Shown piece by piece: positions 23,735-26,722 of a DNA stretch of 29,894 bases. Within the stretch, counting starts at the first letter, position 1. Every line of letters starts with the position of its first letter. The DNA lies in contig JBDTWF010000010.1 in the NCBI GenBank assembly GCA_040006815.1, positions 1 to 29,894 of the forward strand. The letters are read 5' to 3'. The notes beneath the pieces were generated by a model, which saw nothing but the letters and a program-made list of their open reading frames with translations, was not told where the DNA came from and made no database searches. The position numbers and the translations under genes are program-made. The DNA is from Candidatus Moraniibacteriota bacterium. Lineage in GTDB: Bacteria > Patescibacteriota > Minisyncoccia > Moranbacterales > UBA1568.

Positions 23735-23845
23735 AAAGTCTGTTGGATGGCAAAAGTAAGAGTTCAGCCTATCAGAGGAGCGCCGGAGCGTCAAATCCCC
23801 AGGTGATTTCAGAAAATGGGAGTTTCGGCTAATATAAAGGAAAAT

Positions 23846-24286: not shown

Positions 24287-24310
24287 AAAACAGCCCCACG
24301 AACGGAGCTG
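24281..24310 (-). terminator. Intrinsic terminator ending the leftward accessory operon
   Basis: Minus strand CAGCTCC-GTTCGT-GGGGCTG-TTTTTTATTT. Confidence 0.75.
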
Positions 24311-24322
24311 CCTTTCTTAAAC

Positions 24323-24368
24323 CATTTCCTCTCCAGAATTTCCAATGGCTTCGAATCTCTGGAAGGGG
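24323..24368 (-). repeat. Repeated hairpin element, copy X
   Basis: Plus strand CATTTCCTCTCCAGAA...ATCTCTGGAAGGGG; homologous to 25244-25290. Confidence 0.6.
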
Positions 24369-24414
24369 CTCAAGCGCTGCACGAGGGCAAACGCTTGAGC
24401 GAGTGGGTGGCTTT

Positions 24415-24807
24415 CTAGACCGGAGAGATGAGCGGTCTGGTTTTCACCAAAACCTGTTCGATCACCTCGTAGTGCCCGAAACCGAAGACATCGCGGCCAT
24501 GGGCGTCCTGCGACGTCACGACGACTCGTCCATCAGTCCCCCGAGCAAATTCTGCCCGCAGGATGAGCAGATTGCCGAACTCGCGTTTGGCGGCGGTGAG
24601 CTTGGCGAGGACAGGAACCGGTGCGACGACTTCAATCGCCACAACGTCCCCATATTTCTCCAAAAGCCCCGCGACTGCCTTGACCGGGTCGTCGCTGTAC
24701 GGAACGTCATCGTCCACAATCTTTAGGTCGTTTCCGAATGCTTTCCGAAGAGCCTCGATTCTCGACGGGTCTGCCGGGTGGCGGGTAATGCGAACGATTG
24801 TGGCCAT
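24415..24807 (-). CDS. Hypothetical 130-aa Rossmann-like protein (N-terminal TRH motif)
   Basis: Strong AAGGAG SD and normal protein composition: ITRHP...EALRKAFG...VVAPVP...FGFGHYEVIEQV. Confidence 0.75.
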   Translation of the reverse strand: MATIVRITRHPADPSRIEALRKAFGNDLKIVDDDVPYSDDPVKAVAGLLEKYGDVVAIEVVAPVPVLAKLTAAKREFGNLLILRAEFARGTDGRVVVTSQDAHGRDVFGFGHYEVIEQVLVKTRPLISPV

Positions 24808-24873
24808 TTTTTCTCCTTACCCCAGATCCCCGAGGTGCGGGTTGGCAGAATGCCAATTTCACAAAGAACTCTT
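24808..24873 (-). repeat. Repeated structured leader, copy B
   Basis: Minus strand AAGAGTTCTTT-GTGAAATT-GGCATTCTGCC-AACCC...GGGG-TAAGGAGAAAAA-ATG; homologous to 25642-25711. Confidence 0.75.
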
Positions 24874-24941
24874 GAAGCTCCTTGGATGAAAGAGACTCAA
24901 GAGTGCGCAGGAAGAGAAGAATTCTTCTTTTCCTGCATGGG

Positions 24942-25211
24942 TTATGAAACGAATTCCGACGCCGGGCGCACCTTCTCCTTTTCCCCAGGTTTTTTCACGA
25001 AGATGATGCAGCGGGCCACATGGGTCCGCAGGCAGTCATCGCAAATAAGGAAGAAGAGTTCGATCGTCGGTGCTGTGCCGAAGCTCAGGTTGGGATCGAA
25101 GGCCGTCGAACCGTAATTCCCGTACGACGAGCACATGACGCCCCCGTTCGGCTGGAATGAGTTGATCGGCTGCAATTCTTTGTCACAGCAAAAACAGAAA
25201 AGTTTTTTCAT
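24942..25211 (-). CDS. Hypothetical 89-aa Cys-rich protein (possible Zn finger)
   Basis: CFCC near the N-terminus, QPNGG, GNYGSTAFD, ICDDCL; co-oriented with its neighbours. Confidence 0.65.
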   Translation of the reverse strand: MKKLFCFCCDKELQPINSFQPNGGVMCSSYGNYGSTAFDPNLSFGTAPTIELFFLICDDCLRTHVARCIIFVKKPGEKEKVRPASEFVS

Positions 25212-25243
25212 GGCTGATCTCGTTGGTTGAAAAGAACTCGGGA

Positions 25244-25290
25244 CATTTCCCTTTCAGAAGTTTCTTACTGAAAAAATCTCTGAAAGGGGG
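25244..25290 (-). repeat. Repeated hairpin element, copy Y
   Basis: Plus strand CATTTCCCTTTCAGAA...ATCTCTGAAAGGGG; perfect 10-bp stem CCCTTTCAGA/TCTGAAAGGG. Confidence 0.6.
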
Positions 25291-25425
25291 GAGAAGGCAT
25301 GCGTTGCATACTTCTCCAAACTTTGAGTCTTTTTTTCAGGTGTGGCTCGGAACCTGTCTCATCTACACGCGGACGAGAAGCGCGAAGGAGTTTATCGTCA
25401 GCCTCGCGACGGGTCCAGAGCTACT

Positions 25426-25641
25426 TCAAGACTTCAAGAAGTAGATGAACGCCCCTACGAACAGCACTTCGGTTATAACAACACCGATGAGCACGGCCTG
25501 GATGGTCTTGGCGACCAGAGCCACACCACCTTCCGCAGTGCGTATCGCTTCGGCACGATCACCGGACATATACTGCAATCCGGCAATCACACCGACCACG
25601 ACAGCAACGAAAAGGGCCGGGACAAAGATGAGCTTGAGCAT
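25426..25641 (-). CDS. Hypothetical 71-aa two-helix membrane protein
   Basis: AGGAG SD, two hydrophobic helices; first gene after the leftward promoter. Confidence 0.7.
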   Translation of the reverse strand: MLKLIFVPALFVAVVVGVIAGLQYMSGDRAEAIRTAEGGVALVAKTIQAVLIGVVITEVLFVGAFIYFLKS

Positions 25642-25711
25642 TTCTTTCTCCTAACCCGATACCCTCGGGCGAGTGGGTTGGCAATATGCCGATTACTTTG
25701 AAAGAACTCTT
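25642..25711 (-). repeat. Repeated structured leader, copy A
   Basis: Minus strand AAGAGTTCTTT-CAAAGTAATC-GGCATATTGCC-AACCC...GGG-TTAGGAGAAAGAA-ATG. Confidence 0.75.
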
Positions 25712-25749
25712 TTCAAGTCTTGAAGAAACGCTTCTTAACTCGAAGGCCT

Positions 25750-25778
25750 AGTATAGTATTTATTTAACTTTATGTCAA
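25750..25778 (-). promoter_or_regulatory. Near-consensus promoter for the accessory operon
   Basis: Minus strand TTGACA-17 nt-TATACT. Confidence 0.8.
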
Positions 25779-25790
25779 TAGTATGTGACT
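25773..25790. promoter_or_regulatory. Putative operator 1 (TGTCA-N8-TGACT)
   Basis: Inverted repeat overlapping the -35 of the leftward promoter; same spacing as operator 2. Confidence 0.55.
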
Positions 25791-25844
25791 GTTTTTCAAT
25801 GAAATGCCTTTTTAAAAATGAAATTATGGCGTAACATAAGCAAA

Positions 25845-25870
25845 AATTTGTCATATAAATTTGACAAATT
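25845..25870. promoter_or_regulatory. Putative operator 2 (AATTTGTCA-N8-TGACAAATT)
   Basis: Perfect 9-bp inverted repeat overlapping the -35 of the TrmB-like gene promoter. Confidence 0.7.
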
Positions 25871-25888
25871 AATGAAAAGTAGTATCAT
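25861..25888 (+). promoter_or_regulatory. Promoter for the TrmB-like gene (leaderless candidate)
   Basis: TTGACA-16 nt-TATCAT, ending 6 nt before ATG 25895; no SD. Confidence 0.65.
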
Positions 25889-25894
25889 AGAAAC

Positions 25895-26722
25895 ATGTAT
25901 AATGAGCAACTAGAACAATTTGGTCTCTCAAAGGCGCAGGCGCAGGTCTATATGTATCTCCTGGAACATGGAGGTCAAAAGGCCGGAGAAATTGCACGTG
26001 GGGTAACGATCAAACGCGGATTGGTGTATAAGGCTCTCAAAGAACTTGAGAGCATGACTTTAATTGAGCGACGAGATGAACCGAATAAGCCAGATATCTT
26101 TTTGGCACGCCACCCTGAAATGCTTCGCAATCATATCGAAGAACGACTGCGACGGGCCAAGGAAGCGGAGGTTCTTTTCACAAGCTTCGCGCCAGCGCTT
26201 GGGTCAGCGTTTAATTTGATATCAGGAAAACCAGGAATTCGTGTTCTTGAAGGGTTTGACGGATTCAAGACGCTCTATAAAGATATTATTGCCGAAGGAA
26301 AGTCTATAAAGCTTATCCGCTCATCTTATGATCGGGAAAATCCAGAAATAGCGAAGTTTATTGATAAACAAATCCATGAGCAGATCCGGCATGAGATAAA
26401 TGTTAAGCTCCTGACGCATGAGACACCCAATGCGGCGCAGTTTGCACTTTGGTCTGATGACGATCGTTTGGTAACGCGGCGTATTGTGACGGACCCAAAC
26501 TTTCTTCTTCCGGCGCAGTTCGTTCTTTATGGTAATAAGGTGGGTATTACTGACTTCGAGACCACATTTATTACTACTATCATTGAGAACATCGCCATCA
26601 GGAAATCATTTGATATCATGTTTGATTATATGTGGCGGGCGGCCAAAGCGGGGCATGACAAACTCCTAGCTCAAGCCGAAAAAGATCAGAATGAAAAAAA
26701 AGGCTATAGTAAGGCTAAGTAA
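25895..26722 (+). CDS. TrmB-family transcriptional regulator
   Basis: N-terminal GLSKAQAQVYMYLL...AGEIARGVTIKRGLVYKALKEL winged HTH, a coiled coil, PGIRVLEGFDG, and a C-terminal effector domain (LYGNKV, FDYMW). Confidence 0.85.
   Translation: MYNEQLEQFGLSKAQAQVYMYLLEHGGQKAGEIARGVTIKRGLVYKALKELESMTLIERRDEPNKPDIFLARHPEMLRNHIEERLRRAKEAEVLFTSFAPALGSAFNLISGKPGIRVLEGFDGFKTLYKDIIAEGKSIKLIRSSYDRENPEIAKFIDKQIHEQIRHEINVKLLTHETPNAAQFALWSDDDRLVTRRIVTDPNFLLPAQFVLYGNKVGITDFETTFITTIIENIAIRKSFDIMFDYMWRAAKAGHDKLLAQAEKDQNEKKGYSKAK

Follow-up and report, generated by a model that had tools for sequence, protein, structure and literature searches.

The 29,894-nucleotide (nt) stretch of Candidatus Moraniibacteriota DNA analysed here (contig JBDTWF010000010.1, hereafter the window) carries on its minus strand a three-gene island in which the first and third genes follow copies, A and B, of one structured leader of about 70 nt. 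The leader is a conserved unit of two hairpins, P1 and P2, which keeps a fixed position and orientation relative to the Shine-Dalgarno sequence (SD) and the start codon, and which sits on mobile genes without a common function. The two copies belong to a real and apparently undescribed family of structured leaders, the mechanism of which is inferred, and we lean towards viewing them as instances of a portable folded mRNA leader that controls the start of translation and the stability of the message. The island, with its open reading frames (ORFs), and the parts of both leaders are arranged as follows:

25641-25426, 25211-24942 and 24807-24415, minus strand: the three-gene island, ORF1, ORF2 and ORF3 respectively
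25711-25642, minus strand: leader copy A, followed by the ATG at 25641
25697-25707, minus strand: box GTTCTTTCAAA of copy A, boxA-like and single-stranded, as read from the sequence
25680-25690, minus strand: hairpin P1 of copy A, GGCA-TAT-TGCC, assigned by covariation across leaders
25673-25679, minus strand: linker AACCCAC of copy A, assigned by conservation, with its CC predicted to form pairs with G1 and G2 of the SD
25654-25670, minus strand: hairpin P2 of copy A, G-CCCGA / GGGTA / TCGGG-T, from the fold; a rarer P2 sequence variant
25639-25652, minus strand: SD AGGAG (25652-25648), spacer and ATG (25641-25639) of ORF1
24873-24808, minus strand: leader copy B, followed by the ATG at 24807
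24863-24873, minus strand: box AAGAGTTCTTT of copy B
24842-24856, minus strand: hairpin P1 of copy B, TTGGCA-TTC-TGCCAA, from fold and covariation
24819-24841, minus strand: linker CCCGC of copy B (24841-24837) and hairpin P2, A-CCTCGG / GGAT / CTGGGG-T, the common core form
24805-24818, minus strand: SD AAGGAG, spacer and ATG of ORF3

Both copies contain AAGAGTTCTTT, a GGCA-NNN-TGCC hairpin, AACCC and a hairpin of a C-run and a G-run that touches AGGAG, and they are identical in 85% of 77 aligned columns. The original prediction, made from the sequence of the window alone, had placed the two copies and their shared parts at these positions and a third box at 25239-25231 before the middle gene; all are present in the minus-strand sequence. 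A composite pattern of the leader occurs at two places in the 829-kb genome, namely copies A and B, and at none when reversed as a control, while GAGTTCTTT is found six times in the window against 0.66 expected, its third island copy (25239-25231) being the one that precedes ORF2. A covariance model for which copies A and B were the only input recovered homologous leaders from 18 further genomes of the family; together with the counts above, this puts the predicted duplication beyond chance.

Alignment of the leaders revealed a constant order: a box (A/C)AGUUCUUU(C/G)A(A/G)A, 5-12 nt, P1, a linker (A)CC(C)GC, P2 of the form N-CCUCGG / loop / CWGGGG-N', 0-3 nt, GGAG, 6-8 nt and AUG. All leaders from the candidate phyla radiation (CPR) terminate in an SD and a start codon, and GTTCTTT of the box is kept in the 46 CPR leaders aligned, a minority having single substitutions. 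The sequence of P1 is free (GGCA/UGCC, GCCA/UGGC, GCGAA/UUCGC, GUCGC/GCGAC and others, with no conserved loop), yet all five of its base pairs show compensatory changes in the 46 leaders and 92.7% of cells are paired; none of 500 shuffles attains this covariation score, and slid registers are only 20-60% paired. P2 is conserved in sequence, with rare compensatory forms (CCCGA/UCGGG in copy A, UUCGA/UCGAA and UUCCGG/CUGGAA) beside the common CCUCGG/CUGGGG, and its outer pair N-N' covaries in the CPR leaders. Covariation in both hairpins, together with their site in the 5' untranslated region, bears out the conserved, structured RNA-type motif that had been proposed. Both hairpins lie downstream of the promoter and lack a U-tail. 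Two further elements of structure were considered and not adopted: a pseudoknot between linker CCC(G) and the P2 loop (C)GGG fits most sequences, but its pairs are invariant, the short GUA loops are too tight and it stays unproven, and a P0 helix (UUGA…UCAA) around the box is visible in many leaders and, by eye, missing from several.

Within the family, a second covariance model built from 25 leaders identified 41 instances in 26 of 107 genomes, covering 7 of 12 genera with one to three instances per genome. Across 151 genomes sampled from the order, no hit beyond the family was better than E = 0.003, and the weak out-of-family matches are 5' leaders that lack the second hairpin and whose box reads GTTCTTTAAAA or GTTCTTTAACA. 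We observed in four such loci from other families of the order (L073-L076) that the box, GTTCTTTAAAA or GTTCTTTAACA, is a perfect match to the boxA consensus located 25-60 nt upstream of a strong SD, and that in L073 it is preceded by a UCUCAAUU-hairpin-AGAGAC unit, the same as in the family's spacers. No family of Rfam 15 reaches its gathering threshold anywhere in the window, and relaxing the search to E values up to 10 over 24300-26000 yielded chance-level snoRNA and miRNA hits only, so no already described Rfam family accounts for the leader.

The genes behind the leader argue for a platform with exchangeable contents. The viral core stands before at least 68 unrelated clusters of small ORFs: the 75 ORFs that were clustered have a median length of 85 amino acids (aa), and few of them are nameable (RadC-like, DUF932, ArdC-N and an anti-restriction PHROG), and the CPR cargo comprises unrelated small proteins, mostly diverse orphans with a few free-standing RNA polymerase alpha-CTD-like or receiver-like proteins. 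Two examples of the former, both leader-driven and from relatives, are 115-130 aa long and contain the RNA polymerase alpha C-terminal domain (L025:1570-1914 and L032:1571-1960, both plus strand; Pfam E = 3e-13 and 4e-8). The original prediction of two unrelated genes therefore holds for unrelatedness and not for the number, since dozens of unrelated genes follow the leader. All six comparisons between related genomes, with flanks 73-89% identical, lose similarity just past GGAG, no more than 9 nt from the start codon, and regain it only at short spacer units or past the operon. This break right after GGAG implies that the leader is the fixed platform and the cargo the exchangeable part. A metabolite riboswitch would be expected to precede genes of one pathway or transport function, but the cargo is unrelated both among the viral ORFs and among the CPR orphans.

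The core of the leader is also widespread outside CPR bacteria. A scan of IMG/VR with the pattern CCGC-N-CCTCGGG…GGGG…GGAG, which does not include P1, matched more than 116 stretches, compared with 4 for the reversed control. At E < 0.1, the 80 viral loci gave 60 matches to the second covariance model, which had been trained on CPR leaders only. These matches have a hairpin where P1 would be expected, and every position of this hairpin covaries in a set of 66 viral leaders. Of 84 viral hits, 81 have a base pair between the free positions N and N' (70 G-C, 7 A-T and 4 G-T; the other 3 have different combinations), GGAG lies 6-8 nt from the start in 76, and an ORF of at least 40 aa comes next in 75. 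Since model score, P1 covariation, N-N' pairing and start spacing all lay outside the search pattern, we conclude that the viral hits represent the same element. The phage form has no GUUCUUU box, and its P1 begins a few nucleotides past the -10 hexamer of a sigma-70-type promoter; a promoter-like site lies within 60 nt upstream in 44 of the 84 hits, often with a palindrome between the hexamers. In many viral units (for example L097, L125, L137, L140, L144, L151, L153 and L162) this is a near-palindrome, ACGCGCAATGCGCGT or ACGCCCAATGGGCGT, between -35 and -10, with the look of a repressor operator common to these units. A phage genome of 47.8 kb, complete and with terminal repeats, contains seven units; those that were read share a 26-nt core except for one loop base, and P1 differs in each. 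Head, tail-sheath and tape-measure genes are found on leader-bearing contigs according to PHROGs. Rfam had no match at the motif positions of 13 viral loci, and a BLAST search of one viral leader against GenBank phages gave none with a query that was too short or was filtered. In the GTDB collection the pattern has 123 hits: about half have the hairpin, an A-rich spacer and an ORF, and come from genomes labelled Beta-, Gamma-, Alpha- and Epsilonproteobacteria, Acidobacteriota and others, while the other half are mostly in genomes of 65-75% GC and look like chance matches.

Two side observations concern individual contigs. A P2-SD core without P1 precedes a conserved 408-aa protein, the N-terminus of which has the look of a HigA/XRE-type antitoxin regulator, in L228:5523-6783, L256, L263, L272 and L281, labelled Burkholderiaceae, Rhodocyclaceae, Sulfuritalea or Pseudomonadota; a Thiobacillus contig (L257) encodes a 401-aa homologue. 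On a viral contig with two leader units, a C4 antisense RNA (Rfam RF01695, 61 bits; L162:287-370, plus strand) adjoins an Ant-like anti-repressor gene. We considered this RNA as a regulator of the leader and rejected it, as its duplex energies with leaders are no better than with shuffled leaders.

In the window, the leaders belong to an island with a promoter, spacers and a divergent regulator of its own, the remaining features of which are:

25895-26722, plus strand: divergent TrmB-like winged-helix regulator (Pfam TrmB, E = 2.8e-13)
25750-25778, minus strand: sigma-70-type promoter TTGACA-17-TATACT driving the island (consensus scan, 11/12)
25712-25744, minus strand: predicted hairpin at the transcript 5' end, directly before the copy A box, from the minimum-free-energy fold; TCAAGTTAAGAAGC is conserved in relatives
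25426-25641, minus strand: ORF1, 71 aa, first cargo gene, a small hydrophobic protein with two hydrophobic stretches read by eye from the translation
25274-25418, minus strand: multi-hairpin spacer element 'X' between ORF1 and ORF2, the best-conserved island DNA in relatives
25230-25288, minus strand: spacer hairpin (25288-25249) and third box GAGTTCTTTT (25239-25230), preceding ORF2
24942-25211, minus strand: ORF2, 89 aa, Cys-rich
24415-24807, minus strand: ORF3, 130 aa
24285-24316, minus strand: intrinsic-terminator-like site after ORF3, the sole one of the island

A homologous TTGACA-17-TATAMT promoter precedes the promoter-proximal (first) leaders of relatives, where the DNA farther upstream, as far as the divergent gene, is likewise conserved. 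In tblastn searches a divergent TrmB-like homologue adjoins leaders in 14 loci besides the window, and the pairing of regulator and promoter-proximal leader is conserved across the family; when relatives of the regulator were sought in genome contigs, only distant DPANN archaeal ones appeared. The region upstream of ORF2 has the spacer hairpin and the box only, without P1, P2 or SD. In two relatives (G005 and G070) a full leader comes after the same hairpin and box, so that the leader of ORF2 looks truncated.

The SDs of ORF1 and ORF3 stand out from their surroundings. Both genes have AGGAG, whereas TsaE, PolA, PilB and the TrmB-like regulator have no SD (positions 23816, 25895 and 26691 on the plus strand and 22932 on the minus strand). 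The regulator starts 6 nt past its -10 hexamer and is likely to be leaderless. The 3' end of the 16S rRNA retains the anti-SD CACCUCCUUUCU, and a crude genome-wide SD test, blurred by uncertain start codons, gave 42% compared with 40% for the control, a result that leans in the same direction but is less clear than the window's own genes. In minimum-free-energy folds the first two G of the SD pair with the linker CC in 31 of 42 CPR leaders and 39 of 64 viral leaders, forming a helix of 2-3 base pairs stacked under P2. Such a pairing would explain the conservation of both the linker and the distance from P2 to the SD.

Given these features, we propose a model in which the core (P1, linker, P2 and SD) would serve as a mobile expression module that is shared with phages and placed before unrelated small accessory genes. 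The form seen in the Moraniibacteriota family adds a 5' extension of a hairpin and the box GUUCUUU(C/G)AAA, together with a strong promoter diverging from the TrmB-like regulator, and is repeated inside short operons. P1 may protect the 5' end of the message; the phage-form transcript would have P1 right at its 5' terminus, where stabilising hairpins are classically found. P2, stacked on the helix of linker CC and SD G, would keep the ribosome-binding site at the foot of a helix, an arrangement that could set, or let a factor set, how often ribosomes load. In addition, the leader would equip its genes with a strong SD, which the housekeeping genes nearby do not have.

Several points weigh against this model. 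Transcript ends, processing and effects on translation are all deduced from DNA sequence. The unpaired probability of the SD in the predicted ensemble (0.35-0.40) is the same as in controls with shuffled upstream sequence, and therefore the folds show neither masking nor exposure of the SD; we rejected both as conclusions from thermodynamics. As the linker CC and the SD GG are invariant, their pairing is beyond the reach of covariation. The leader model leaves the box of the CPR extension unaccounted for; speculatively, this box may be a processing site recreating a P1-proximal 5' end in polycistronic CPR transcripts. Lastly, the near-invariance of linker and P2 across phyla exceeds what a stabilising hairpin needs, and suggests a specific partner.

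Such a partner could take different forms. It is conceivable, though we think it rather unlikely, that the leader is the operator of a trans-acting factor, with linker and P2 binding either the 30S subunit itself or some protein, small RNA or small molecule that would switch translation of all leader genes. Linker and P2 are indeed near-invariant, with P1 free, from CPR bacteria to phages and contigs labelled Proteobacteria; P2 (CCUC x GGGG) resembles an SD/anti-SD helix just upstream of the true SD; and the repressor-type palindromes in many upstream promoters imply that the units are regulated. However, no candidate partner is co-conserved with the leader: the CPR neighbour is TrmB-like, and no such gene was noticed by the units on two phage contigs (L106 and L162), where it was not searched for. 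The cargo without common function speaks against a metabolite sensor, the core is only about 45 nt long with an unproven pseudoknot, and the C4 RNA found on a single contig has no special complementarity to the leader. An outside chance also goes to the core being a cross-phylum initiation element spread by phages, in which linker and P2 dock on a universal part of the ribosome or an initiation factor and P2 mimics the SD/anti-SD helix. If so, the cargo would be translated efficiently on entering very different hosts, including CPR bacteria whose genes skip the SD.

The resemblance of GTTCTTT to the boxA of NusB and S10, already pointed out in the original prediction, raises the question of whether the element acts on transcription instead. 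The boxA consensus GYTCTTTAANA is gamma-proteobacterial, the rrn boxA of B. subtilis (AUGAUCUUUGAAA) binds NusB, and boxA in E. coli suhB mediates Nus-dependent repression of translation (PMC5725501, PMC13753749). On this basis the box could be a boxA that loads NusB/NusE, with P1 as boxB, serving read-through of spacer hairpins or suhB-like repression of translation. The likeness to boxA is real: the box GTTCTTT(C/G)A(A/G)A fits the gamma-proteobacterial consensus at 10 of 11 positions (PMC5725501) and resembles the B. subtilis site (PMC13753749), a hairpin lies directly before it as in rrn leaders, it recurs at every spacer including that before ORF2, NusB and NusG are encoded in the genome, and the weak model hits in other families of the order are boxes in 5' leaders. 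As in the boxA and nut systems of rRNA operons, lambda, suhB and CRISPR leaders (PMC5725501, PMC13753749), there is a U-rich box with a neighbouring hairpin in a transcribed leader. Unlike in those systems, however, the hairpins are coupled to the SD, and the island offers no terminator that would have to be read through: its only terminator-like site comes after ORF3. A search of the 98%-complete genome (G000) for the Rho RNA-binding domain was negative. In a lambda-type nut site, boxA is followed by a boxB hairpin to which an N-like protein binds, ahead of terminators that are then read through; P1 has no conserved loop. In the rRNA leaders of this genome and three relatives (G010, G013 and G019), CUCUUUUG, CUCUUUGU or UUCUUUCU comes after a hairpin and GUUCUUUSAAA is absent, although the shared YUCUUU core leaves a little room for boxA. 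Eight matches to GTTCTTT[CG]A[AG]A elsewhere in the genome look coding by eye, and no N-like gene turned up in general scans of the cargo ORFs, which were not aimed at such genes. The phage core is box-free and lies at a fixed distance from SD and start, pointing to control of translation rather than of elongation. We therefore regard a Nus-factor site as improbable and antitermination as unlikely; of the two functions first suggested for the motif, translational control is retained as the favoured, inferred reading and nut-like antitermination is dropped. Also with regard to rRNA, no 23S gene was found in G000, in which the 16S gene lies at a contig end.

That the leader and spacer units are instead DNA-level recombination sites, crossover points that shuffle cassettes through hairpins in single-stranded DNA, is very unlikely: similarity between relatives does break exactly at the leader end and resume at conserved spacer units, cargo does vary in arrays, and PeSL-mediated shuffling (PMC2839356) offers a precedent, but no integrase or recombinase was noticed beside the inspected loci (where only TrmB-like, PolA, TsaE and DHH neighbours were searched for), orientation and spacing to SD and start are fixed, each phage copy has its own promoter outside any platform array, and ordinary homologous recombination would leave identical breakpoints at any pair of conserved 75-nt leaders, with no need for a dedicated site.

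Returning to the portable leader, a comparison with known systems shows that it belongs to none of them, although it is closest in behaviour to PeSL cassettes and phage morons and in architecture to the ompA leader, with a looser likeness to put. A full-text search of the literature for the core sequence gave nothing relevant. Promoter-early stem-loop (PeSL) cassettes were described in T4-type phages (Arbiol et al. 2010; PMC2839356). Like the leader, they are short units of a sigma-70-type promoter and a stem-loop, repeated before unrelated small ORFans in plastic regions, and gene content is swapped between close relatives at the units, although the sequences are unrelated. The PeSL stem-loop, however, is a terminator before the promoter, whereas here two hairpins follow the promoter and abut the SD; the leader has a core sequence common to several phyla, and recombination between PeSL units yields mini-circles. 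Phage morons are self-contained promoter-gene-terminator units. They likewise place small accessory genes with their own promoter among unrelated phage or prophage genes, and some leader cargo is anti-restriction-like; but the moron concept includes no shared structured leader, and the units of CPR genomes lie in the chromosome, each paired there with a TrmB-like regulator, some of them being polycistronic. The ompA-type stabiliser, known from work of the Belasco laboratory, combines a 5'-terminal hairpin with a second hairpin beside the ribosome-binding site, and is portable, gene-specific and not known to be conserved in sequence across phyla. It shares with the leader two hairpins, the first at or near the 5' end and the second adjoining the SD, as well as portability to other genes, but the linker and P2 of the leader are almost invariant across phyla. 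The put RNA of phage HK022 is a cis-acting element of the nascent transcript, about 70 nt long, whose two stem-loops follow directly on the early promoter (PMC9378689). Its likeness to the leader is one of description, not of sequence; put works on RNA polymerase, occurs in only a few lambdoid phages and has no tie to a ribosome-binding site. Integrons were also compared: the neighbour is TrmB-like rather than an integrase, GTTCTTT misfits GTTRRRY, and the element lies 5' of ORFs at the SD. In an integron, the attC site (R''/R', RYYYAAC/GTTRRRY) is at the 3' end of the cassette and is accompanied by IntI, attI and Pc.

If confirmed, the leader would be a structured RNA motif missing from the catalogues, and a frequent one in phages and prophages that carry the labels of many different phyla. 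We see several consequences: (i) Annotation. The leader marks small accessory genes, a few of them anti-restriction-like, so it could point to early or counter-defence genes where phage or CPR sequence is unannotated. (ii) Gene expression in CPR bacteria. A lineage whose nearby housekeeping genes are SD-less would keep a second, SD-led expression route for exchangeable genes, made of a phage-type module and a dedicated TrmB-like regulator. (iii) Experimental use. The near-invariant 26-nt core offers a compact test object for the function of the leader in diverse hosts, and the leader may serve as a portable expression part.

Some minor observations relate to the island itself. The sequence was matched in a soil-metagenome run only, and that run is of DNA. 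None of ORF1, ORF2 and ORF3 has a match in Pfam, NCBIfam or PHROGs; by language-model features and predicted fold, ORF3 is nearest to small, mostly phage-borne proteins, some with an MJ1673 (CRISPR-associated, CARF-like) domain, which we take as a lead only. Spacer element X has no Rfam match, and a hammerhead-like reading of it (GAUGAG…stem…AAAAAAG) was rejected, with the core G12 missing and no Rfam hit. In nhmmer searches it occurs in three to five copies per locus between small genes in two genomes (G010 and G004), and its consensus fold has a loop-to-downstream pairing GAGG…CCUC that suggests a pseudoknot.

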